64,000 nucleotides of DNA from Candidatus Doudnabacteria bacterium (GTDB lineage: Bacteria > Patescibacteriota > Doudnabacteria > UBA920): NCBI GenBank assembly GCA_016788665.1, contig JAEUSF010000006.1, positions 4,401 through 68,400 of the forward strand, in the 5' to 3' direction. Below, piece after piece: positions 5,700 through 35,555 of this stretch. Within the stretch, counting starts at the first letter, position 1. Every line of letters begins with the position of its first letter. The notes beneath the pieces were generated by a model, which was not told the DNA's origin, did no database searches, and worked only from the letters and a program-made list of their open reading frames with translations. A program made the translations under genes and the position numbers.

Positions 5700-6230
5700 A
5701 TGCCTAAGTACAATATTGTTTCGCCCGAGAACCCCGACTGGTTTGTCAGGAGGGTAAACAGTCAACAGGCCGTTGTTAGGGCTAAGCTGCGGCTGGACGT
5801 GGAAACCGGAAATGTGGACTACGAGTTTCGCATGTACTACCTCTACCAAGGCAAGCTGTACGAAACTACGTTTGCCACCTGGGAGCAAAAGTCAGGTGGC
5901 CTGCCAGGTACGGCTACCACTTACTTTAACTTCCGCCAACCCAGCCACATCACACTGCCCGCCGCCGCAGAATTTGTTACCAACTTTTGGCAAGGCGTCC
6001 ATAACACACTATGGATGTACGACGCGGAAACTATTACCATCGACAACAAAGGACCGAACGGCTCCTACCGAGTACTCGAAGGCGAAGAGAAAAACCTTGT
6101 GCTTTCGAGCCTGCTAAGAGGGCTTGTGAACGAACTCCGACTGCTGCTGCACATGTCGGACAACGACATGCACAAGCATTGCTACCAATACGCAAAGCAG
6201 GTGGCCGAAAGCTGCCTTGCCAACCTCTAG
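5700..6230 (+). CDS. hypothetical protein, GC-rich foreign-looking gene (no signal peptide)
   Basis: 176-aa ORF with markedly higher GC than flanks, perfect SD and promoter; no recognisable domain. Confidence 0.6.
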   Translation: MPKYNIVSPENPDWFVRRVNSQQAVVRAKLRLDVETGNVDYEFRMYYLYQGKLYETTFATWEQKSGGLPGTATTYFNFRQPSHITLPAAAEFVTNFWQGVHNTLWMYDAETITIDNKGPNGSYRVLEGEEKNLVLSSLLRGLVNELRLLLHMSDNDMHKHCYQYAKQVAESCLANL

Positions 6231-6459: not shown

Positions 6460-6534
6460 GGCGCTATCGTCTAATGGTTAGGACAGGTGGTTCTCATCCA
6501 CCAAATCGGGGTTCGATTCCCCGTAGCGCTACCA
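6460..6534 (+). tRNA. tRNA-Glu (anticodon CUC)
   Basis: Cloverleaf folded by hand: acceptor GGCGCTA/TAGCGCT (G1-U72 wobble), D arm GTC..GAC, anticodon stem GGTGG/CCACC with loop TTCTCAT, T arm CGGGG-TTCGATT-CCCCG, encoded CCA. Confidence 0.8.
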
Positions 6535-7107: not shown

Positions 7108-7572
7108 TTAGTCCGTTAAGGACTCCACAATCCCGCCTATAACCGCTCCGCAAGCTTCCAAGGCCGCATCCACCGCTACCTCAAAAACTGTTTCAGCAAC
7201 AGCCCCAGCAAGGCTCCATCCGGCTTCGCCCAAATCGGTACCGGTTACGGTAGATGGGTTTACAACCGGCGCAACTGCCGGCAAGGCACTTAAGGCTTTA
7301 CCGACTGCCTTTTTCGGCAGTTTTTTTGCTACCCGAATTTTGAGACTTCCCTTCTTTTTTTGCAGGGTCCCCTCCTTTTCAGCAGTATTATATTTTAAAA
7401 CAGGGCTTTGTTCAAGCCTAATATAATTTAACAAATTCCAGTAAATAAAAAACCAAGACTTGTTTAAGTTCTTGGTAAAGAAATTTCCGACTCGAGTATC
7501 ACAAGCACCTTTTTCAGGTACTGGTGGTCTGGGTAGTCTGCCGACAACAGTTTCAGCAAAGGAGCCACCCAC
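7108..7572 (-). CDS. hypothetical Ala/Val/Gly-rich protein, GC-rich; true start unresolved
   Basis: Track ORF starts at GTG; an internal TATAAT plus AAGGAGGGG precedes an in-frame CTG at about 7360, with no ATG; overlaps the upstream ORF in another frame. Confidence 0.3.
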   Translation of the reverse strand: MGGSFAETVVGRLPRPPVPEKGACDTRVGNFFTKNLNKSWFFIYWNLLNYIRLEQSPVLKYNTAEKEGTLQKKKGSLKIRVAKKLPKKAVGKALSALPAVAPVVNPSTVTGTDLGEAGWSLAGAVAETVFEVAVDAALEACGAVIGGIVESLTD

Positions 7573-8039
7573 GGGTTCAGGCTTTCGGCCAGAATCTGAC
7601 GAAGGTCAGCTTCGTCCAGCATACAGCCCAGGACCGCCAAAGCAATAGCGGCCGCCTCGTCCAGGTCCGGACAGTAGCTTGCAACTGCCAGCGCAATGGG
7701 CGCACCGAGGTGCACAAAAAATATGCCGCCCGCCGGAGTGTATGCACAAAGGCTTGTACACTGATTTTGGTTCTCTGCAACTGCAGCTACCCTCCACTTT
7801 GCAGACCCGCTCCAGAGCTGGAGGTCGACGAAGGACCATTTACACTCTGGCGCCATTAAAAGCTCATTTAGCAATGGCGGAGCGTACTTCAACCGGTCCC
7901 TGCTTTCACCTCCGGCCGAAACAAGAGTTACGACGCATCCTCTAAAAGGCCTTTTGCGGCCTTCGTTGAATGCGTCGCCGGCTAGCGCCTTTATGACTGA
8001 GCGCGCGTAGTTCCGAGTTCTTCCAGAAAGGGACGCCAT
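7464..8039 (-). CDS. hypothetical protein, GC-rich foreign-looking gene
   Basis: 191-aa ORF with GGAGG 7 nt upstream of the ATG at 8039; no recognisable domain. Confidence 0.45.
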   Translation of the reverse strand: MASLSGRTRNYARSVIKALAGDAFNEGRKRPFRGCVVTLVSAGGESRDRLKYAPPLLNELLMAPECKWSFVDLQLWSGSAKWRVAAVAENQNQCTSLCAYTPAGGIFFVHLGAPIALAVASYCPDLDEAAAIALAVLGCMLDEADLRQILAESLNPWVAPLLKLLSADYPDHQYLKKVLVILESEISLPRT

Positions 8040-9519: not shown

Positions 9520-9867
9520 CTAAAAGTGTACCAAGGTAAAACGAACAAACTTCCTTATCCGGGGCGTAAGTAGGCTTACGTCGTAAAGCCTGATTTTTCC
9601 AGTAATCTTGTTTGCACGCCAACAAACTTTGGCGTAGCCCCAAGTTTGGTTGCGAATAACAACGCTCGCGACAAACCCTAAACCCTGCGAAGACCCTCCG
9701 CCCTTACAAGCGCTCTTTACAACGACTCTAACATCCCCGGCCTCACGGGCGCATGTCTTCTTACTACGCGCAAGTAGCGCTATCACTCCTTCAGCCACAA
9801 GCCTACTAGCCAAACTAAAATCCACCATTGAGGCCTTGTTCTTAAAATACCCCAGCTCTGGCTTCAT
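9520..9867 (-). CDS. hypothetical protein, GC-rich
   Basis: ATG (MKPELGYF) preceded by GAGGAGGG and TTATAAT on the minus strand; GC-rich segment 9560-9900; could instead be noncoding. Confidence 0.3.
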   Translation of the reverse strand: MKPELGYFKNKASMVDFSLASRLVAEGVIALLARSKKTCAREAGDVRVVVKSACKGGGSSQGLGFVASVVIRNQTWGYAKVCWRANKITGKIRLYDVSLLTPRIRKFVRFTLVHF

Positions 9868-9988
9868 AACCCTCCTCAAAATTATAACAACCAAGCATTA
9901 TACAAAACTTTAACCCTTTTTTCAAGCCCAAAATAAAATCCCCGCACCTCTAGGTGTGGGGCATGCAGAATGCAATTATGATTGGCTT

Positions 9989-11053
9989 TTATTGCTGAAA
10001 GAGCCTTCGAGCCGTTTCAACTTTCTCCCTTAGGCCTTCAGTCTCCTTCTCTTTAGCTTGGAGCAAGCTGCGAAGATTTTCGTTCTCCTGAAGCAGATGA
10101 GTGACCTGTGCGAGCAGATTCTCCATTGCCTGCTGGGAATCTGCAGTTGCCTTTTTGGCTGCCGTTACAGCTTCGGCAAAAGCCGCCGAGGCACTTTGCG
10201 CGAGAACCTGTTCAATTGTCGGGGTGGATGGTTTCGCACCTTTTACCGACCGTGGCATACGAAGCTGAATTCCGCGGCTTTTTTCCAACGTTTTAATCCT
10301 GCCGTACAAACTTGCGTCCGAAATACTACTCCTATTAAACCCCATCGAACGGATTTCGCGGATAACATCCCGCTTGCTGCCCATGTGCCGGTCGTAAATG
10401 GAGCTCAACCCTGCTAAAACATCTTCGAGCCGGGGCCTGCTCATGACGGCAGGCTTCGGTCCCTCTGTTGTTGGTTGCCCGACGGATGTTTCCGGACTTA
10501 GCAAGGCCGGATGCGGTTGTTTTTCATGGGCTTGGTTCAGTCTTTTAGCCCCAGACTGATCAGCCATTGCTACGGTAACGGGCGCGGGTGTATGTTGAAG
10601 TTTCTCAGCATCAGGCTTAGGCAAGCCTACTGTCTTTGTGACCCCACCCAAACTTAAGCAGATGACACCTTTTTTGTCGCCTTGGAAAGATTCGACCATC
10701 CTATGCAAGAACGACGCAGCGTCAACCACCAACATTACGCAACCGGTCTTCTTACTACTAACCAATTTTTCAATGCTGGAAAGGATCTCGTCGCCAAGCC
10801 TCCCATTAACAGCAACAAACTTTGCGTTTGGCGAAAGCTGCGTTACATGCTTAGCCTGGTATACATTCCAGAAGACAACACGCCCATCAAGCTGGGCCTT
10901 GGACTTCTCTACCGCTGAATCATTTGCTCCGACTACTACCATATTTTCGCCGGGCTCGAGTCTGAATTCGAAGGACGTACCCTCGACTGCGGACGTTGCG
11001 ACAGCACTCATATACGTTCCTTGCAAAAAAGACACAAAGCCCGTAAAAGCCAT
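9989..11053 (-). CDS. hypothetical protein, possibly NYN/LabA-like nuclease domain with C-terminal coiled coil; GC-rich
   Basis: N-terminal MVVVGANDS...VMLVVDAASFLHRMV..GVICLSLGG loosely resembles the NYN fold; C-terminal heptad coiled coil; alternative start MSAVATS at 11011 has an AAGGA SD; terminator hairpin 9938-9965 on the minus strand. Confidence 0.4.
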   Translation of the reverse strand: MAFTGFVSFLQGTYMSAVATSAVEGTSFEFRLEPGENMVVVGANDSAVEKSKAQLDGRVVFWNVYQAKHVTQLSPNAKFVAVNGRLGDEILSSIEKLVSSKKTGCVMLVVDAASFLHRMVESFQGDKKGVICLSLGGVTKTVGLPKPDAEKLQHTPAPVTVAMADQSGAKRLNQAHEKQPHPALLSPETSVGQPTTEGPKPAVMSRPRLEDVLAGLSSIYDRHMGSKRDVIREIRSMGFNRSSISDASLYGRIKTLEKSRGIQLRMPRSVKGAKPSTPTIEQVLAQSASAAFAEAVTAAKKATADSQQAMENLLAQVTHLLQENENLRSLLQAKEKETEGLREKVETARRLFQQ

Positions 11054-25856: not shown

Positions 25857-26270
25857 CTACAGCAAGCAGTACCTGCCTTCTTCGTAGTGCTGTGGCGACA
25901 TGGTCAGAATTAGCTCCTTTACCACGCCGTCCTTACCCAGCATTCTAAATCGTGGGCCTTGGGCCTTTTTGTCGAGGACGACCGTAACCACCCTGGGTCT
26001 TACAGCAAAAGTCCTGAAGACTGGCTTTCTGTCCTTGTCAACAAACGCGAGCTGAAAATACAGCTCTGCTCCTTCGCGGATTATGTAGTCCCCGCAGCGC
26101 ACCTGCGACGGAGATAGCTTTGTTAAAACCGGCAGCTTAGCCGGAAAAAGGTCGAAGCCCTTTTCAAAGGCCTCAGAAATCACGGCATTGATCTTGCCCG
26201 TGACCTCGTCTATTTCCTGCTCCTGGCCAGCAAACGCAGCCAACACCAAGCACGCAATAAGCAACTGCAT
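25857..26270 (-). CDS. small secreted protein, GC-rich foreign-looking gene
   Basis: ATG at 26270 with AGGAGG 4 nt upstream; signal peptide MQLLIACLVLAAFAGQ; the 40-nt palindrome lies just upstream. Confidence 0.5.
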   Translation of the reverse strand: MQLLIACLVLAAFAGQEQEIDEVTGKINAVISEAFEKGFDLFPAKLPVLTKLSPSQVRCGDYIIREGAELYFQLAFVDKDRKPVFRTFAVRPRVVTVVLDKKAQGPRFRMLGKDGVVKELILTMSPQHYEEGRYCLL

Positions 26271-26378: not shown

Positions 26379-26701
26379 TAATTTAAGAAACCTTTGTTAA
26401 AACGCTAAATTTATAACTACAAACCAAACTCAAAATAAATAATTATATAAATTCTTAGTTATTTAAAATATCCCGTCACATCTATTACTTTTACAGCAAT
26501 TTGTAAACAATCGAAGCCTATTTTTACTTTACCAATTTTATACAATACACTCATAACTTACAAATTCTACATAAATTTACTTTTATTATATAACTTTGGA
26601 TCGGAAGACTTTTAATAAAACAAGGTGCCACTTATTAATCAATATGTCATATTGAAAATTTCTGCTGAATGCTCTATACTGTATTGGATTTGCTTTATAC
26701 G

Positions 26702-26728
26702 TTGGGGTGTCGTCCCGACTAGCCGGGA
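26702..26728 (+). repeat. direct repeat copy L: tRNA-Gln 5' fragment (TTGGGGTGTCG) fused to the GTCCCGACTAGCCGGGA hairpin
   Basis: 11 nt identical to tRNA-Gln positions 27003-27013, followed by a near-palindrome; copy R at 27111-27145. Confidence 0.85.
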
Positions 26729-26744
26729 TAAGGAGCCGCACAAC

Positions 26745-26983
26745 ATGTACACGACTTATATATTACAAAACCCTTTGGGAAAGCTTTATATAGGTTACTC
26801 CAGTAATCTTGATGTTCGGATTAGTTGGCATAATTCGGTAAATCAAAATTTACCAGAAATAAAGGTCCATGGAAGTTGTTTTATAGTAAAGAATTTCTGA
26901 CAAAATCTGAAGCTATCAAATACGAATATTATCTTAAATCTTTAAAAAGTCCGGAGTATATTAAAAAACTTATTGTGAAATAA
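26745..26983 (+). pseudogene. GIY-YIG nuclease gene with a 1-nt frameshift
   Basis: MYTTYILQNPLGKLYIGYSSNLDVRISWHNS then, after a single-base frame change at about 26833-26837, GKSKFTRNKGPWKLFYSKEFLTKSEAIKYEYYLKSLKSPEYIKKLIVK*; the joined product is a canonical about 80-aa GIY-YIG protein; AAGGAG SD at 26730. Confidence 0.75.
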
Positions 26984-27098
26984 TTTTTTCCTTTCACCTT
27001 CATTGGGGTGTCGCCAAGTGGTAAGGCAGGGGCCTTTGAAGCCCCCATTCGTAGGTTCGAATCCTACCACCCCAGCCAGGTGAAAGGAAAAAATTATT
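26979..27098. repeat. 20-bp perfect inverted repeat enclosing tRNA-Gln
   Basis: AATAATTTTTTCCTTTCACC (26979-26998) is the exact reverse complement of GGTGAAAGGAAAAAATTATT (27079-27098); the tRNA sits in the 80-nt loop. Confidence 0.9.
27004..27078 (+). tRNA. tRNA-Gln (anticodon UUG)
   Basis: Acceptor TGGGGTG/CACCCCA with U1-A72 as in bacterial tRNA-Gln, D arm GCC..GGC, anticodon stem GGGGC/GCCCC with loop CTTTGAA, T arm GTAGG-TTCGAAT-CCTAC, discriminator G, encoded CCA. Confidence 0.8.
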
Positions 27099-27110
27099 TT
27101 ATAATAGTAA

Positions 27111-27145
27111 GGTGTCGTCCCGACTAGTCGGGACCACCCCAGCCA
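27111..27145 (+). repeat. direct repeat copy R: GGTGTCG + perfect palindrome GTCCCGACTAGTCGGGAC + duplicated tRNA-Gln 3' end ACCACCCCAGCCA
   Basis: 13 nt identical to the tRNA 3' end (27066-27078); followed by terminator hairpin CACCAATAAACATTGGTG plus T8 (27154-27179). Confidence 0.85.
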
Positions 27146-27318
27146 AAAGAATTCACCAATAAACATTGGTGTTTTTTTTATGGTATAAATTATTTTGAAC
27201 CAAACTTTCAACACTTTCTAGGGGTGGACGTTTTTCTACATTTTTGCTAAAATACAAGGTCTCTTGTCAATGCTGCGGCAGTAGGAAGACTAGAGTGAAT
27301 GTAAAGGAGGTGAGAAGA

Positions 27319-27753
27319 ATGCAAAGTATTCGCGCGTTTGTACCGTGGACGTTTTTTAGAAAGCTGCATCCGTTCAATGCGGAGCTGCTGAAAAGCAACG
27401 CTATGCTTGTCAGAGCATGCGGCGCTAAACCCGCAGACGGCAGCATTTTACGGTCTAGGGGTTATTTGCTTTTTGGAAACGGAGTGGCCACACTCCTTCC
27501 TCAAGCAGAGACACTCGCACAAGGACTGAACGGCGTAAAAGGTTACGTTATGGAATTCGTCCAAAAGCGTGACCCTCGTAATGTCGCCTACTGGGAAGTC
27601 CAAATCTCAGTAGACCAGACGCGGGTCGAGCGGGATTGGAGAATTGAAGCGTCCTGCTTGCCGCCAGATTCGGACGAGGGCATCCACTTCACGCCCCTCG
27701 TCGAACAGCAAGGCAAACCCGGACAGTATTTCTACCTTACTTGCGTAGCTTAG
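27319..27753 (+). CDS. hypothetical protein, GC-rich (gene A of islet)
   Basis: ATG at 27319 with AAGGAGG at 27304-27310; 144 aa; no recognisable domain. Confidence 0.5.
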   Translation: MQSIRAFVPWTFFRKLHPFNAELLKSNAMLVRACGAKPADGSILRSRGYLLFGNGVATLLPQAETLAQGLNGVKGYVMEFVQKRDPRNVAYWEVQISVDQTRVERDWRIEASCLPPDSDEGIHFTPLVEQQGKPGQYFYLTCVA

Positions 27754-27868
27754 GGCGGACAGCAATGTTCGCTAAACCGTAACTTGGGGTTTGTTGTCCA
27801 AATGCGGCCACCTTGTGTGGCTTTCCATAATGTGACAAACCCTCCTTAACCCCAAAAGGAGATTTGTC

Positions 27869-28354
27869 GTGAGAAACTTAGTCTACGTATCCGGGGCATT
27901 GAGCGATGTCCCCTCGGCCATTCGGCCTCTGTACCTCGACTTTTACGAGTTGATCGGACGGAAAGTCGAGACTCTCGGACTTGCTTCATATGTCCCGCAC
28001 CTCAACACAGACCCGGTGCGGCACAAAAACGTAACTCCGAAACAGGTCGACCTCATCGACCGGACAGCAGTCACCTCAGCTATGCTGGTCGTAGCCGTGG
28101 CAGACAATCCGTCGCTCGGTGTCGGTATTGAGGTCGAGATGGCCTTCCATGCTAACAAGCCGGTTGTACTTCTCTGCCAACGAGAACGAATCGAGCAGCG
28201 GCTCATTAGCCGCCTAATCCGCGGCAACCCTGCAGTCATCCACGAGATTGTTTATGTGGATTTCGCCGATGCGCTCTCTTTACTTGAAACGTTCATTCTT
28301 TCATTCCTGAAAGAACAGGCGGAGAGTATTCTTCCAAAGACGCTCAAAGTCTAG
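27869..28354 (+). CDS. DNPH1/Rcl-like 2'-deoxynucleoside-5'-phosphate N-glycosidase family protein (nucleoside 2-deoxyribosyltransferase fold)
   Basis: GTG start with AAGGAG SD; VYVSGALSDV N-terminal phosphate-loop-like segment and VAVADNPSLGVGIEVEMAFHANKPVVLL..ISRLIRGN closely parallel the DNPH1 motif PSLGVGYELG..A..NK (recalled from memory, not searched). Confidence 0.6.
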   Translation: MRNLVYVSGALSDVPSAIRPLYLDFYELIGRKVETLGLASYVPHLNTDPVRHKNVTPKQVDLIDRTAVTSAMLVVAVADNPSLGVGIEVEMAFHANKPVVLLCQRERIEQRLISRLIRGNPAVIHEIVYVDFADALSLLETFILSFLKEQAESILPKTLKV

Positions 28355-28551: not shown

Positions 28552-29808
28552 TTATTGGTTGCCGTACAGCTTCGCTTCACACTCCACCTTACCGGTAGAA
28601 GCCGCGTTGGTTTGCGCGGTAAACTTAACGGTAAAGCCGGTGTAAGTCTTGTTGCTAAACGACACCGAAGGCGCTGCGTAGCCTGCAAACTCCTGCACGC
28701 CACACCCCGACAGCGAGTAGTTGGCTACCCCCGGGAGAAAAGGCGTGAGGAAATTGACCACGTAGGTGCAGGTGGATCCTGCGACTGCCGCGGTCGTACA
28801 GTTACTCTGCGGGTCGGCGGCGGTAACCATACGCACGCTACTAAGTTTGGTTAGAACCCCGGTAGCCGTGCGTGTGTTGATGATGCTGCAATCCTTACAG
28901 GGCGTAACGCCGTCAGGACTTGAACCATTCGAGATGGTTGTGTTGTAAGCGGGAGTTTCCCCATTAGGACCCGCCGTATCTTCCGCAACAACGCCGCCAG
29001 CTCCGTTTCCGGAAGTCTGGACTCCATCCACAACGTGGTCAAGCCCTCGCAAACTCAGCCCCCTACTTCCATTCGTAACCCTGAGGCTGCGAAATGTGAA
29101 ATAGGTTGAACCCATAACGTAAGCACCGTAACCACTTCCGGAGAGGTTTATGTAACCTCCCCACACGTTTACGCGCACAAAGTTAGAGTTCGAAGACGGA
29201 TTTGATGGCACCGTTACCAACCCGTAGGTGAACACTCCGGTCCACACAACCTCGTGTAGGTCAATATCGCCGGTATAGCAAGGAGCGCTACCACCCTCCA
29301 CCGTGCAGAGCCCAGCAGGGCTCCAATAGGTATTCTTAAGCACCAAGCCATCGGTGCGGTAGCGGGTAGTATTTCTGTTCGCGAATATCACGTTCCGGAG
29401 TTTCGCCCGGATCATGTTGTCGAGCACCACAGCATTCGCAGTGTTACTGTTTGAGGTAGTCAAGTCGAAGATGATATCCTCGAACTGCACCCCGTAGGAA
29501 AACATGCCCGGAAAGCCCATTGTGAAGATGGTGCTGCAACCATTGCAGCTGAGCCTTACCATCCCGCCGTTCTTGGGCCGAAACCGCACAACCACCTCTG
29601 AGGGAATGGTATTCCAAAGCCCGACCGAGATTTTACAATCGGACTCGAACAGAACCTCGCCTCCCCCAGACAAGACAATCAGGGGGTAATTCTGTTGCAG
29701 CGACAACGACGCAGTACCATCTGCGCATGACGCTGCGGTTACCACGTAGCTTGTGGCAGCCTGTGTACTGGCTACGAGAGCCAGAAACAGGACAAGAAGT
29801 CTAAACAT
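28552..29808 (-). CDS. secreted Cys-containing Gly/Ser/Thr/Asn-rich protein, possible right-handed beta-helix; GC-rich
   Basis: ATG at 29808 with AAGGAGGAG SD; signal peptide MFRLLVLFLALVASTQA; repetitive N/G/S/T-rich segments typical of beta-helix adhesin/lyase folds; fold not proven. Confidence 0.55.
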   Translation of the reverse strand: MFRLLVLFLALVASTQAATSYVVTAASCADGTASLSLQQNYPLIVLSGGGEVLFESDCKISVGLWNTIPSEVVVRFRPKNGGMVRLSCNGCSTIFTMGFPGMFSYGVQFEDIIFDLTTSNSNTANAVVLDNMIRAKLRNVIFANRNTTRYRTDGLVLKNTYWSPAGLCTVEGGSAPCYTGDIDLHEVVWTGVFTYGLVTVPSNPSSNSNFVRVNVWGGYINLSGSGYGAYVMGSTYFTFRSLRVTNGSRGLSLRGLDHVVDGVQTSGNGAGGVVAEDTAGPNGETPAYNTTISNGSSPDGVTPCKDCSIINTRTATGVLTKLSSVRMVTAADPQSNCTTAAVAGSTCTYVVNFLTPFLPGVANYSLSGCGVQEFAGYAAPSVSFSNKTYTGFTVKFTAQTNAASTGKVECEAKLYGNQ

Positions 29809-30246: not shown

Positions 30247-30636
30247 ATGACCAAAGACATAAAACAATACAATTCAAAACTAAAGGGCGAGGACAAAAAG
30301 ATTTGTAATATATTAGTAAAAGAAATATATGCAAATTTAAAAGAAGCGGAAAGCAAAGTCTGGCACGGGCATCCGGTGTGGTTTTTGGACGGAAACCCTA
30401 TAGTTGGCTACGGAAAGCTTAAGGCTTCAGTGCAATTGCTTTTCTGGAGCGGACAGACGTTTAAAGAAAAAGGGCTTAAGCCTGAAGGCAGTTTTAAAGC
30501 TGCCGAGGTACGCTATACTAAAGCAGAAGAAATAAGCACTACACACTTAACCAAGTGGTTAAAAAAAGCGAAAAAAATTCAATGGGATTATCAAAATATA
30601 GTCAAAAGAAAAGGTAAGCTAATTCGACTAAAATAA
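30247..30636 (+). CDS. DUF1801 (YdhG-like) domain protein
   Basis: ..VWHGHPVWFLDGNPIVGYGKLKASVQLLFWSGQTF.. matches the DUF1801 family; native AT-rich composition; bidirectional terminator 30643-30677. Confidence 0.6.
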   Translation: MTKDIKQYNSKLKGEDKKICNILVKEIYANLKEAESKVWHGHPVWFLDGNPIVGYGKLKASVQLLFWSGQTFKEKGLKPEGSFKAAEVRYTKAEEISTTHLTKWLKKAKKIQWDYQNIVKRKGKLIRLK

Positions 30637-30770
30637 CCTTGTTTACAAAACGCCTCTATGCCCATAGAGGCGTTTTGTATTTGTATGTATTAGCCTTCTA
30701 AATTTTTTTAGTTTATAATCTTAACATAGCGGGAAGTTGCCGCTCATCTTACCATGGTTCCAGGAGGACT

Positions 30771-31112
30771 ATGCTTCGCGCCAAAATCGCATTGGCCGCA
30801 ATGGCGGCCATGTCACTTGGTCTCTCAGCTCCCGCTGTTGAGACAACCCCCGAGCTCATTCCCGAGCTCGGAAAACAACAGCCCAAGTTCGCACCCGCTA
30901 CGGTCGAAGACGATACGGTCTGCGCCGTCGCCTACCAAGACGGCCCCAACCAAATTTTGGCACGTGAAAAAGACGTGCCGAAAGGGGCGAAGATTGTGGC
31001 AGTGTACACGGCCACAAAAAAAGAGTGCGCGCGCCTGGGACGACTCCCAAGCGTCAAAGCGCAAAAACGGGGTACGGTCATTCACTTTACAGCCCCCGCC
31101 CAGCCAAAGTAG
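30771..31112 (+). CDS. small secreted protein, GC-rich
   Basis: AGGAGG 5 nt upstream; signal peptide MLRAKIALAAMAAMSLGLSAPA; own terminator 31112-31137. Confidence 0.55.
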   Translation: MLRAKIALAAMAAMSLGLSAPAVETTPELIPELGKQQPKFAPATVEDDTVCAVAYQDGPNQILAREKDVPKGAKIVAVYTATKKECARLGRLPSVKAQKRGTVIHFTAPAQPK

Positions 31113-31195
31113 AGCACCTTGCTCTACTATTTTTTTGACCCTTTTTGTTTTTCTATTTATAATTCTCACACCAAGTTTAAGCCAGAGGAGGCCGA

Positions 31196-31612
31196 ATGCT
31201 GAGAATTCTGATTGTTCTATATTTCCTTTCTTGGGGCACATTCGAAGCCGCTGTGTGGCACCAAGAAGAAGTGGCGTCCGTAAAAACCCAAGGCCAAACC
31301 AAAAGCAAAGTGATCTTCCCCAGAGTCACGCTCGGAGAAAACTACCAAAGCGAAGTCGCTGTTATAAACACTTCACAAGCTGTTGGCTCATGTAGCCTGT
31401 CGGAGTACAGCCCAGAGCTATCACGGGTAGTGCGGGTAAGCCACACGCCAGTCATTGGCCCAGGAAAGCAGTTTAGTCTTCGGCTTGTGCCTGTCAAAAG
31501 CTTACAAAAGGCGTACATTGTAATAATTGCCAATTGTAACTTTGCAAGCACGGGCGTGCTCACAACGACTAACCTTCAAAAAAAACTCGCCACTGTAGAA
31601 CTGGCCTACTAA
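31196..31612 (+). CDS. small secreted protein, GC-rich (paralog pair with 31696)
   Basis: TTGACC-17-TATAAT promoter at about 31127-31155, GAGGAGG SD, signal peptide; shares the FP..x..S..N....C motif with the next gene. Confidence 0.55.
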   Translation: MLRILIVLYFLSWGTFEAAVWHQEEVASVKTQGQTKSKVIFPRVTLGENYQSEVAVINTSQAVGSCSLSEYSPELSRVVRVSHTPVIGPGKQFSLRLVPVKSLQKAYIVIIANCNFASTGVLTTTNLQKKLATVELAY

Positions 31613-31695
31613 AAGCACCTAAAGTTTCGGGTGCTTATTTTATTGACGAAAATGCTTTTATAAAGTAAGCTTTCAAGTTAACAAGGAGAGACGAA

Positions 31696-32124
31696 ATGAA
31701 GAAAGTAACAGGACTGTTTTGGGTCCTATTTTGGCTCTTTCTAATGACCAATGTTGTGGGTTTCTTGCGGAGCAACCTGTCTGAGTACACCGTGGTCAGA
31801 AAAAACTCAAAGAAAAAACGGGTTAAACTGGTATTTCCGAGCCTTAGCCAGGCGGAAAGCTACATGTCTACAATATGGCTCACCAACTACGGCAGAGCCA
31901 CCGCAAAGTGCCAAACGGACTACTACCTGGCCCACGGAAACGGGGAAAGATACTGGAGAGTGACCTCTACAATCTCCCCCCACTTCACCCACGTAGAGCC
32001 TCCTCCAGGCTATTCCGCCAAACAAACCGAGTACTCGGCCGTTTCTACGTGCGATGCCGGAGTTAGAGGCTACGCCATAGTCTACGGACCCAGTGGCGCC
32101 GTAGCTCTGTACGACGCCAAATAG
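31696..32124 (+). CDS. small secreted protein, GC-rich (paralog of 31196)
   Basis: AAGGAGAG SD, signal peptide MKKVTGLFWVLFWLFLMTNVVG; LVFPSLSQAESYMSTIWLTNYGRATAKC aligns with VIFPRVTLGENYQSEVAVINTSQAVGSC of the previous gene. Confidence 0.55.
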   Translation: MKKVTGLFWVLFWLFLMTNVVGFLRSNLSEYTVVRKNSKKKRVKLVFPSLSQAESYMSTIWLTNYGRATAKCQTDYYLAHGNGERYWRVTSTISPHFTHVEPPPGYSAKQTEYSAVSTCDAGVRGYAIVYGPSGAVALYDAK

Positions 32125-32215
32125 ACCGCCCCACCAAAGCAGATTTCTCTGCTTTTTTTATTTTTCCCAAATTATATAAAGTGCTATAATTAAGCATTAT
32201 TAAACATAAAATTTC

Positions 32216-33307
32216 ATGATAATTGTAGGCTTCCTTAGCTTTGTCCAGCTAACCCTGTTTTTCGGACATTTCATAGTGTATAAAACTTTTGTTAAATTTT
32301 TTCAAATTACCCATCCACAAAATCTTTTATACACACGCTTGGTTTTCCTTTTGCTTTCTATAAGTTTTTTGGTAGCCTCTGCACTTGCTTACAAGTTTTA
32401 TGGCAGTTTTGGCCGCACAGCATACGCCAGCGCAGCGGTATGGCTTGGAACTTTGTATTGGTTAGTCTGGGCAAGCCTTTTTGCCTGGATACTCTATTTC
32501 CTTCTCCCCCACTCCATCTCGCTCAAACTTGGTCAAAGTTTGTTTATTTTAGCCTTGTTAGTCAGCGCCTACGGTGTTTGGAATTCTTACCAAACCAAAG
32601 TTAAACATATAACCATCACAATTCCTAACTTACCATCTGAATGGCAGGGTAAAAAAGCAGTCCTTGTTTCCGACACTCACTTAGGCAACGTAAGAAGCTT
32701 AAATTTTTCAAAGCGGATAGCTGAACTAGTTAGCGCTCAAAATCCGGACATAGTATTGGTGCCTGGTGATTTTTACGACGGACCTCCCGCTAATTACGAG
32801 GAACTTGCCGAGCCTTTCGGAAAAATAAAATCGACCTATGGTGTTTATTTTGCTGCCGGCAACCACGAGGAGTTTGGCGATGCGGGACCTTTGTTGTCAG
32901 CCATAGCTAAATCCGGTGTTAAAGTTTTAAACAACCAAATAGAAAACGTAAATGGCCTGCAAATTATTGGAGTAGGTTACGGAGCCACTGTAAATAAGAC
33001 TTCGGAAAAAAGTATATTAGACGGATTAAACATAAACCGCGACCTTCCCAGCATCCTTCTTAAACATGCGCCTACGAACATAGAAACCGCAGAAGCTGCC
33101 GGAATCTCCCTGCAAGTTTCCGGACATACCCATTTAGGCCAAGTTTACCCGTTTAGATATTTAACTAAAAAAATCTACGGAAAGTTCCACTATGGAGCTT
33201 CGGCTTTAAACAACACGCAGGTCGTAACCACCAGTGGAGTCGGCACTTGGGGCCCGCCGCAAAGAGTCGGCACCAATTCAGAAATAGTTGTTATAACTTT
33301 TAGGTAA
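32216..33307 (+). CDS. membrane-anchored metallophosphoesterase (calcineurin-like)
   Basis: N-terminal TM helices; VSDTHLG, GDFYDG, GNHE, GHTHLGQ metallophosphatase motifs. Confidence 0.85.
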   Translation: MIIVGFLSFVQLTLFFGHFIVYKTFVKFFQITHPQNLLYTRLVFLLLSISFLVASALAYKFYGSFGRTAYASAAVWLGTLYWLVWASLFAWILYFLLPHSISLKLGQSLFILALLVSAYGVWNSYQTKVKHITITIPNLPSEWQGKKAVLVSDTHLGNVRSLNFSKRIAELVSAQNPDIVLVPGDFYDGPPANYEELAEPFGKIKSTYGVYFAAGNHEEFGDAGPLLSAIAKSGVKVLNNQIENVNGLQIIGVGYGATVNKTSEKSILDGLNINRDLPSILLKHAPTNIETAEAAGISLQVSGHTHLGQVYPFRYLTKKIYGKFHYGASALNNTQVVTTSGVGTWGPPQRVGTNSEIVVITFR

Positions 33308-34182: not shown

Positions 34183-34315
34183 ATTAAACGAGTAATACAA
34201 ACCAAATAGCCGCTTACCAATCTTCCCTGGGAAGATTTTTTATTTAATTACTTCTTAAGTTTTTTTAGCTATGGTGTACTTAGTCAATAAAATTTTAAAC
34301 TAATTGCACAAACTT

Positions 34316-35035
34316 ATGCCACAAAATTACAAGAAAGACTTAAGTCCGCCCAAAAAAACACTAACCCAACAACAGCTCGAACTTATTCGTAATACCGTAG
34401 CCAAAGGTGCCACGCCTGACGAGCTAAAACTGTTTTTAATAGTAGCCAACAGAGCCGGTCTCGACCCTTTTACAAGACAAATACACTTTGTAAAGAGGGG
34501 TGGCAGAGCCACAGTACAGACTGGTATAGACGGCTATAGAGCCATAGCAGAAAGAAGCGGGAGCCTGGCGGGCATAGAAGACGCATTATACGACGCCGAA
34601 GACCAAGTCCACCCGAACAAAGCCACGGTGACAGTTTATAGAATGGTGAGTGGGCAAAGAGTTCCGTTTAGTGCTTCTGCCAGATGGGATGAATACGTGC
34701 CCCAAAGCGGACAAGACTTTATGTGGCGGAAAATGCCCTACTTTATGCTCGGTAAAGTTGCGGAAGCATTAGCTTTAAGAAAAGCATTCCCAAACGACTT
34801 AAGCGGACTTTACATTCACGAGGAAATGCAACGTGACGACAACAGTACGGAAAATGATTCAGAAGCGCTAATAAATCACAACAGCACCTCTCAAGAAAAA
34901 GAAAGTTCTTTAGACCCCACATTAACTGCCGCAAAAGATTACTCAAAAAAATTCTGGTCCCGCGCCGAACAACAAACACCTGCCTCAGAAAAACAAGCGC
35001 CTGTTTACCAAAAAGAAGCACTAGACGAGCCCTAA
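34316..35035 (+). CDS. recT: RecT/Bet-family phage single-strand annealing recombinase
   Basis: LTQQQLELIRNTVAKGATPDELKLFLIVANRAGLDPFTRQIHFVKRGGRATVQTGIDGYRAIAERSG is a textbook RecT (PF03837) core; track start is TTG, ATG at 34316. Confidence 0.8.
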   Translation: MPQNYKKDLSPPKKTLTQQQLELIRNTVAKGATPDELKLFLIVANRAGLDPFTRQIHFVKRGGRATVQTGIDGYRAIAERSGSLAGIEDALYDAEDQVHPNKATVTVYRMVSGQRVPFSASARWDEYVPQSGQDFMWRKMPYFMLGKVAEALALRKAFPNDLSGLYIHEEMQRDDNSTENDSEALINHNSTSQEKESSLDPTLTAAKDYSKKFWSRAEQQTPASEKQAPVYQKEALDEP

Positions 35036-35177: not shown

Positions 35178-35555
35178 ATGCTTGTACTTCTAGCACTGGT
35201 CACGACGATTTTCGCCGCTGAACCCACGCAAAAAAATCTAGACGCGAGTCCAGGCTTCGTCTGGGGCTACATAGCCCGCGAAGTTAGTTGGATAACGCGG
35301 TCAGAAAGCGGGTACCTGGAACTCGTTCGTGCAGACTTGGTCTGCACCGACAAAACCGAGCGGCGCTGTGCTGCTCTTAGGCAGTACCTTATTCCACTGC
35401 CGAAGACCAACTACATGATATTTACGAAAAAGGACTTCCCACTGGGAAGTCCGAAACAACCCCGCGACGAAAACCCTGCGAGGTTAGTAAGTCCGGGGGT
35501 TGTAATCCCCCTGCTTCAAAAGCTCCAACAAGAGCCCGGGCATTCTAATCAATAG
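35178..35555 (+). CDS. small secreted protein, GC-rich
   Basis: AAGGAGG SD, signal peptide MLVLLALVTTIFAAEP; terminator hairpin about 35528-35578. Confidence 0.55.
   Translation: MLVLLALVTTIFAAEPTQKNLDASPGFVWGYIAREVSWITRSESGYLELVRADLVCTDKTERRCAALRQYLIPLPKTNYMIFTKKDFPLGSPKQPRDENPARLVSPGVVIPLLQKLQQEPGHSNQ

Follow-up and report, generated by a model that had tools for sequence, protein, structure and literature searches.

The transducer of Anabaena sensory rhodopsin (ASRT) and Thermotoga maritima TM1070 are the proteins on which the ASRAH superfamily was founded (de Souza, Iyer & Aravind 2009, PMC2739507). The ASRAH domain is defined as an eight-stranded β-sandwich formed from two four-strand repeats, with a nearly invariant Asn ending strand 2, where it fixes a tight, gap-free turn, and a conserved Trp that follows a polar residue where strand 1 begins (PMC2739507). 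These domains are predicted to bind small molecules or sugars in a cleft lined by strand 2 and completed at the dimer interface, and families other than ASRT are invariably found as dyads or tetrads (PMC2739507). Extracellular families are fused to N-acetylmuramoyl-L-alanine amidase in Chloroflexi or form lipoprotein dyads in actinobacteria (PMC2739507); by our reading, the latter probably correspond to Pfam DUF5719 (PF18986). Here, we describe two adjacent genes, A (31196-31612, + strand, 138 residues) and B (31696-32124, + strand, 142 residues), within a 64,000-nucleotide stretch (the window) of a Candidatus Doudnabacteria metagenome-assembled genome (MAG), from the Candidate Phyla Radiation (CPR)/Patescibacteria. 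Their products form a new, narrowly distributed family in this known β-sandwich superfamily. With moderate confidence, we favor A and B being exported or anchored, disulfide-stabilized ASRAH-type binding modules, which would act on or off the cell surface as oligomers that recognize a glycan or similar ligand.

AlphaFold2 (AF2) models of A and B were built on a five-sequence alignment and have mean predicted local distance difference test (pLDDT) values of 81 and 79.6, respectively, with the domain blocks at ~86-95. Both models consist of an N-terminal helix (residues 2-30 in A, 3-31 in B), a disordered Lys-rich linker and eight β-strands, which in A comprise residues 37-47, 50-58, 66-72, 77-83, 92-97, 106-114, 118-126 and 131-136. 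The predicted β-sandwich spans residues 37-136 of A (31304-31603, +) and 43-140 of B (31822-32115, +). Foldseek comparison to the PDB returned TM1070 (1NC7) as the top match of both models (E = 6.5e-6 for A and 1.7e-5 for B, probability 1.0, TM-score 0.56-0.69, rmsd of 3.0-3.3 Å, 109-111 columns), followed, again for both, by the ASRT entries 2II7-2IIA.

The relationship was also sought in sequence profiles. A five-sequence profile (A3) found no match among the PDB sequences. The best PDB match of a profile from a hand-assembled 22-domain alignment (A5) was 1nc7, at a borderline E = 0.0039, with the invariant Asn of the family placed on the Asn of TM1070 "CIMN". The Asn and Cys of this motif are the N32 and C29 of PMC2739507, with a ~22-residue tag offset in the deposited chain. 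The A5 alignment has an invariant Pro and Asn, a nearly invariant Phe, and both Cys in most members. Its Asn, N58 in A and N64 in B, is present in 22/22 aligned domains and ends strand 2 in both models (residues 50-58 of A, 57-64 of B), at the position of TM1070 N32. A transitive link is provided by P0010, a protein matched by A3 that also matches ASRT (E = 4e-4) and DUF5719 (E = 3e-11). DUF5719 is likewise the best Pfam match, below threshold, of the A5 consensus and of several members of the extended family (E = 1e-3 to 3e-11 within larger proteins). Because TM1070 and ASRT are the top fold matches, and because A5 aligns with TM1070 on the hallmark Asn, we assign A and B to the ASRAH superfamily and, within it, to a predicted extracytoplasmic branch that has no current library model. 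The original prediction, which had found no recognizable family, is corrected in this respect.

We compared A and B to ASRT and TM1070 (PF07100; 2II7, 1NC7). All are stand-alone, single-domain proteins with an eight-stranded β-sandwich of ~100 residues. ASRT and TM1070 are cytoplasmic proteins without the hydrophobic N-terminus and the Cys pair of A and B, and they carry an SHEshChhN signature with ligand-contacting His and Cys residues. In strand 1, A and B have no Trp and instead show a near-invariant Phe followed by the invariant Pro (K-x-x-F-P); the HMMER alignment to TM1070 begins after this strand. We regard A and B as lying outside the ASRT-like family proper (PF07100), because they lack the SHEshChhN signature, are not matched by the Pfam model, and have a conserved Cys pair of which both residues are missing in TM1070.

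One other fold was considered and rejected. The ASH/PapD-like/CFAP74 immunoglobulin (Ig) domains (PF15780 and PF24771) share a strand-1/strand-2 pattern with A at sub-threshold E-values of 5e-4 and 0.04, the scores of 20.7 and 14.6 bits falling short of the gathering values of 29.2 and 27. However, B has no such match, these domains adopt a seven-stranded Ig-like fold, and the fold searches returned no ASH, MSP or PapD structures. Searching BFVD gave generic β-sandwich matches only, with TM-scores below 0.47.

Next, we examined the relationship between A and B. BLASTP aligned the two at E = 9e-6 (26% identity, 42 residues). Their Smith-Waterman score of 62 compares to a shuffle mean of 27.6 (standard deviation 4.7), giving z = 7.4, and 0/300 shuffles reached the score. 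Alignment of the A family to the B family by hhalign, orthologues included, covered 86 columns with a probability of 79.5% and E = 1.5e-5. The original prediction had paired the products on a shared F-P-x9-S-x5-N-x7-C core and had proposed a check against shuffled controls; both ORFs lie where it put them, the motif is exact in each (F41..C66 in A, nt 31316-31393; F47..C72 in B, nt 31834-31911), and the similarity is well above chance. It also reaches beyond this 28-residue core, the two proteins being collinear from end to end in the multiple alignment. The residues invariant in the four- and five-way alignments are, in A numbering, F41, P42, N58, C66, I87, P89, P99, C114 and G120. A and B are equal in layout, near-equal in length, and share two invariant cysteines. 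Given the z-score, the hhalign E-value, this common layout and the Cys pair, we conclude that A and B are true paralogues that arose by duplication.

The duplication had been thought to extend to three similar GC-rich secreted ORFs at 30771, 35178 and 25857, here genes C, D and E. These ORFs exist and have hydrophobic N-termini and a GC content at third codon positions (GC3) of 0.56-0.64, but they share nothing else with A and B. In shuffle tests (z < 2) and by hhalign (probability < 1%) they show no similarity to A/B or to one another. We therefore rejected the family of five, while retaining the A/B pair; no further A/B paralogue was found in the window. The opposite view, that A and B are similar by chance or that their ORFs are not genes, could draw on the limited BLASTP alignment (26% identity over only 42 residues) and on the lack of any database family above threshold. 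This view is already effectively refuted by the shuffle and hhalign statistics, by orthologues under purifying selection with conserved Shine-Dalgarno sites in three genomes, and by two confident models of the same fold.

The two other genomes are represented by a 3.4-kb Logan contig (L001) and a 25-kb contig of GCA_964523855.1 (L002). Both hold the block H(-)-C-A-B-Metallophos, and L002 follows the gene order of the window also for E, EamA, RecT, D and an adenosine deaminase gene. The B orthologues P0003 (69% identity) and P0005 (38%) are encoded at these syntenic loci. Close members of A/B are restricted to the three genomes in a word-indexed search of 5.8 billion clusters and in an HMMER run over the full set of 1.84 billion representatives, in agreement with the novel family originally proposed. 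No relatives were found in JGI metagenome contigs by B-family and C-family scans, nor in two scans of IMG/VR. The Metallophos neighbor led to 80 loci, where only the already known contig was positive and the 78 other loci held no A/B homologues.

With the L001/L002 orthologues, A has a ratio of nonsynonymous to synonymous substitution rates (dN/dS) of 0.20-0.26 and B one of 0.20-0.39, and these values lead us to conclude that both genes evolve under purifying selection. Each gene also has its own expression signals. A TTGACC and a TATAAT element, 17 nt apart (31135-31163, +), lie 5′ of A and agree with the promoter consensus at 11/12 positions, as a consensus match only. The Shine-Dalgarno sequences, read from the DNA, are AGAGGAGG for A (31184-31191, +) and AAGGAG for B (31683-31688, +), each spaced 5-8 nt from its ATG. 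L001 and L002 both have GGAGG at the corresponding position 5′ of their A orthologues, and a Shine-Dalgarno site and ATG are retained in the A and B orthologues of both genomes. Terminator-like hairpins with T-runs follow A (31613-31636, +) and B (32136-32155, +). We thus read A and B as self-contained transcription units, and as real genes because of their own Shine-Dalgarno, ATG and terminator elements, their synteny in L001 and L002, and dN/dS values of 0.20-0.39.

The A product is identical to NCBI protein JNN11_03785 of a Candidatus Doudnabacteria MAG. The NCBI version of B (JNN11_03790) has 122 residues, as it begins at an internal start codon and omits the conserved hydrophobic N-terminus (31696-31755). 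The Shine-Dalgarno site, the ATG at 31696 and this N-terminus are conserved in all three genomes, which supports the 142-residue form. Two long out-of-frame ORFs overlap C and A, at 30754-31395 (+, 213 residues) and 30825-31241 (-, 138 residues); they are unlikely to be genes and are better viewed as by-products of the GC-rich composition.

We then turned to the closest relatives beyond the three genomes, which were found by HMMER among 1.84 billion proteins at E = 8e-9 to 1e-3 and are 17-30% identical to A. A first group is formed by metagenomic proteins of 400-2400 residues (P0006-P0011, P0044) with tandem repeats of the pattern "LLFPxV..GFDT.I.I.NTSQDP..G.C...FY....GY.IA.CNFP". In P0008, P0009, P0011 and P0044 these repeats stand beside Big_2, Kelch or BACON domains and keep both Cys. 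The second group is P0012, a single-domain protein of 146 residues with a canonical A-R-A signal peptide, whose architecture of one domain plus a signal is that of A and B. The third consists of metagenomic NHL-repeat proteins with "YYFPHLAVGASWQTTITYINYS..VTCQTDF", the fuller domain pattern being "YYFPHLAVG.SWQTTITYINYS..VTCQTDF". The tandem-repeat and NHL-repeat domains share the FP, the Asn and both Cys positions with A and B but, unlike A and B, mostly occur in multiple copies within the large proteins. No Pfam or NCBIfam model matches over the repeat domain, and these relatives add no functional information. At least one relative lies on a contig of 64% GC with Acidobacteria-like neighbors (DUF3738, MacB/FtsX). 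Since the relatives carry signal peptides or have Big_2, Kelch or BACON domains alongside, they appear plainly extracytoplasmic. The comparison exposes a sizeable extracellular ASRAH branch, marked by FP...N...C...C, that has no Pfam or NCBIfam model. The described extracellular ASRAH families are likewise exported and predicted to bind carbohydrate at the cell surface, as we propose for A and B. They differ in having two or four domains per polypeptide with an enzyme fusion or a lipobox, whereas A and B are two one-domain genes with neither.

The N-termini of A and B are consistent with export. The hydrophobic N-terminus of A, residues 1-16 (MLRILIVLYFLSWGTF; 31196-31243, +), has a KD11 hydrophobicity of 2.48 and a 13-residue apolar run, and could be a signal peptide or signal-anchor. 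That of B, residues 4-24 (31705-31767, +), has a KD19 of 1.99 and could be a signal peptide or transmembrane anchor, its hydrophobicity being kept in P0003 and P0005. A hydrophobic N-terminus is conserved in 6/6 A/B proteins (KD11 2.5-2.8). The n- and h-regions are present and conserved, with only weak -3/-1 candidates for cleavage (SWG|T in A, VVG|F in B). An acidic stretch directly after the hydrophobic segment of A favors an N-in/C-out orientation. A and B are probably exported, with an N-terminus that may be either a cleaved signal or an N-in anchor, and a tether facing the cytoplasm is less likely. Neither an LPXTG motif nor another C-terminal sorting signal is present in A or B. A type IV pilin N-terminus was considered and dropped, as the Gly comes after the hydrophobic stretch, not before it, and position +5 holds no Glu.

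The mature part contains exactly two Cys, at conserved positions, in all six A/B proteins (Cys66 and Cys114 in A, Cys72 and Cys119 in B). A Cys66-Cys114 disulfide is plausible in A by analogy to the topology of PMC2739507, because strand 3, which starts from C66, and strand 6, which runs to C114, lie in one sheet.

The dN of A and B is 5-6x that of the flanking genes, for which dN/dS is 0.04-0.06. A sliding comparison of L001 to L002 shows flanks that are 96-100% identical, while identity falls to 48-59% in the B β-sandwich and also drops midway through C (58-71%). Over the B β-sandwich segment, L001 is instead closer to the window, at 71-80% identity. The diverged L001 segments, 1773-2059 and 808-1004, are equivalent to 31822-32124 and ~30850-31050 of the window. 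Because identity between L001 and L002 drops precisely over the B β-sandwich, within near-identical flanks, we interpret the pattern as cassette-like allele replacement by recombination that is confined to mature domains. Between strains that are otherwise near-identical, such replacement limited to the mature domain of B is a sign that an exposed surface is under selection, and together with the fast divergence it suggests diversifying selection on the bound or exposed surface. The candidate role in host interaction put forward in the original prediction is thereby favored to some degree, if indirectly.

Fast evolution is also common in surface lattice proteins, and A and B could alternatively be structural subunits of a surface lattice or fiber (S-layer-like or pilus/Ena-like), in which the β-sandwiches polymerize and the Cys pair stabilizes them. 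In P0025, a weak profile match, the motif recurs within a stretch to which Pfam Slr4 aligns as well (E = 2.8e-12), and Slr4 is an S-layer protein identified experimentally (PMC7821379); in addition, Ena2A fiber subunits appear among the low-ranked fold matches. Yet A and B themselves do not match Slr4, the resemblance to Ena is poor (TM-score 0.20-0.28), soluble ASRT/TM1070 tetramers rank highest in the fold searches, and no secretion or assembly genes are found in the neighborhood. We consider a lattice or fiber role unlikely.

The favored model, of surface binding modules, can be set out as follows. A and B would each begin with a hydrophobic N-terminus of Sec type, followed by a short linker rich in Lys and then by an eight-stranded ASRAH β-sandwich, which bears the marks of the branch: F-P in strand 1, the Asn that ends strand 2, and two conserved Cys, probably disulfide-bonded. 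They would be displayed on the cell surface or released from it, and may associate as homo- or hetero-oligomers, perhaps as an A/B hetero-oligomer. The oligomers would bind a glycan or other surface ligand on a cell wall, host cell or matrix. A and B are adjacent one-domain paralogues that are paired in all three genomes that have them (3/3) and, by analogy to the dyads of other ASRAH families, would amount to a dyad in trans. The predicted small-molecule or sugar binding of ASRAH domains, and their cleft at a dimer interface, make an oligomeric surface-binding mechanism the most likely, and by the same analogy the ligand is probably a glycan. The fast evolution and the domain-confined allele replacement fit an exposed protein under diversifying selection. 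CPR/Patescibacteria genomes are rich in unannotated small exported proteins and, to our knowledge, little has been established about host attachment by these cells. Placement in ASRAH turns two hypothetical proteins into candidate surface lectins; taken alone, A and B are a divergent family of known fold with a putative function.

Several observations weigh against this model. Single-sequence scans of Pfam, NCBIfam and PHROGs with A and B gave nothing above threshold, and PF07100 matches neither protein even at E <= 1. The sequence link to TM1070 is borderline (E = 0.004) and rests on a hand-assembled profile, and the fold assignment rests on AF2 models from five sequences only. The ligand-contacting His and Cys of the ASRT-like family (H25, C29) are replaced by Q51 and A55 in A and by Met and Trp in B. 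No canonical A-x-A signal-peptidase site was found in A or B; the signal peptides predicted at the outset for both proteins are plausible, with a conserved hydrophobic N-terminus (KD11 ~2.5), but each could also be a signal-anchor. Finally, the positive charge of B is higher after than before its hydrophobic segment, which by the positive-inside rule could favor a cytoplasmic domain.

These last two points would also suit membrane-tethered proteins with a cytoplasmic ASRAH domain, acting as ASRT-like metabolite or sugar sensors that regulate neighboring membrane proteins, for example those encoded by Metallophos or EamA. The proteins that match best in fold are cytoplasmic, and a conserved membrane Metallophos gene (32216-33307) lies directly 3′ of A-B. 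However, the nearest relatives are clearly extracytoplasmic, with signal peptides or within Big_2/BACON/Kelch proteins, and have the Cys pair that TM1070 lacks. The acidic stretch of A favors the opposite orientation, domain-confined allele replacement is typical of exposed proteins, and the ASRT signature SHEshChhN is missing. We find a cytoplasmic sensor improbable. Outside the lineage, the next-best Metallophos matches among GTDB species representatives are 35-48% identical and include many Acidobacteriota MAGs and various CPR groups, in a pattern-limited scan.

Genes C and H complete the conserved H-C-A-B block. Gene C (30771-31112, +) encodes a small protein of 113 residues, predicted to be exported, and lies directly 5′ of A-B in three genomes with its own Shine-Dalgarno and terminator; it is not a family member. 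Gene H (28552-29808, -) is divergently transcribed and encodes 418 residues, counted from Met28 of the listed ORF, of a predicted exported, putative right-handed β-helix protein. Its homologue in L002 (7472-8728) is 31% identical (E = 1e-29) and shows sub-threshold matches to the pectate-lyase-like PF12708 (1.4e-4) and NosD (6e-3). These β-helix signatures fit a carbohydrate context, as weak evidence. A low-GC DUF1801 gene (30247-30636, Pfam E = 1.5e-7) lies between H and C in the window only; it is missing from L001 and L002, whose H-C gap is ~356 bp.

The genes A, B, C, D, E and H, together with the window-specific F and G, have a GC3 of 0.50-0.64, compared to 0.30-0.42 in their neighbors. 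Genes with a GC3 of 0.50-0.66 are scattered over the window, at 5700-6230, 7464-8039, 9520-11053, 25857-26270, 27244-28354, 28552-29808, 30771-32124 and 35178-35555; they are mostly hypothetical and many have hydrophobic N-termini. Two of these groups adjoin tRNA-Glu (6460-6534) and tRNA-Gln (27004-27078), the only hits of an Rfam scan of the window. Because the high-GC3 genes are interleaved with genes of native composition, and several are conserved in three genomes with saturated synonymous divergence (dS), we judge that they are not recent insertions and that the compositional contrast is old. The high GC3 may stem either from old horizontal acquisition from a high-GC donor or from a maintained bias.

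This composition raises the alternative of A and B being morons, carried by a mobile element or prophage remnant, for example with a role in receptor masking or superinfection exclusion, and acquired horizontally with other GC-rich genes. Their own GC3 is 0.50-0.62 against the 0.30-0.42 of native neighbors, tRNA-Gln, a GIY-YIG gene and a RecT gene are nearby, and relatives occur on the 64% GC contig. Against such cargo, A and B have no PHROG matches, the two IMG/VR scans gave no relatives and BFVD only the generic β-sandwiches, no integrase or phage structural genes lie nearby, and in all three genomes the block is bordered by housekeeping genes, with dS saturated, so that it is old and stably inherited. 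We rate mobile cargo as very unlikely. A bolder version of the surface-binding model is that the H-C-A-B block, perhaps also with D and E, serves an episymbiotic CPR bacterium as a recombining surface repertoire gained by horizontal transfer. A/B would then be a heteromeric lectin whose swappable β-sandwich alleles set the host or cell-wall glycan to which the cell attaches. This is a speculative and improbable extension; if true, the A/B lectin would act as a small determinant of host range, much like the receptor-binding cassettes of phages.

Further observations concern the surrounding genes. A GIY-YIG fragment gene (26625-26900, Pfam E = 3e-6) lies 5′ of tRNA-Gln (+), with the GC-rich F and G on its 3′ side (26625-28354 in all). 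In L002 (7049-7472), this tRNA lies on the - strand, flanked by the E and H homologues, and neither F nor G is present. The comparison of the window to L002 indicates an inversion together with an insertion or deletion at tRNA-Gln. A stand-alone RecT-family single-strand annealing gene (34304-35035; Pfam E = 1.8e-30, PHROG 2780 E = 4e-47) is located between EamA and D; it is kept in L002 (12597-13313, 80% identity), with no other phage genes close by. The A orthologue of L002 (9492-9920) has a tandem six-residue duplication, YEVVAW YEVVAW, directly after its hydrophobic N-terminus and is 142 residues long, compared to 137 in L001. The syntenic contig CAZGAF010000013 is labeled "uncultured Candidatus Saccharibacteria bacterium" and the window proteins Candidatus Doudnabacteria; since the housekeeping proteins of both are 80-95% identical, one of the two labels is probably wrong.

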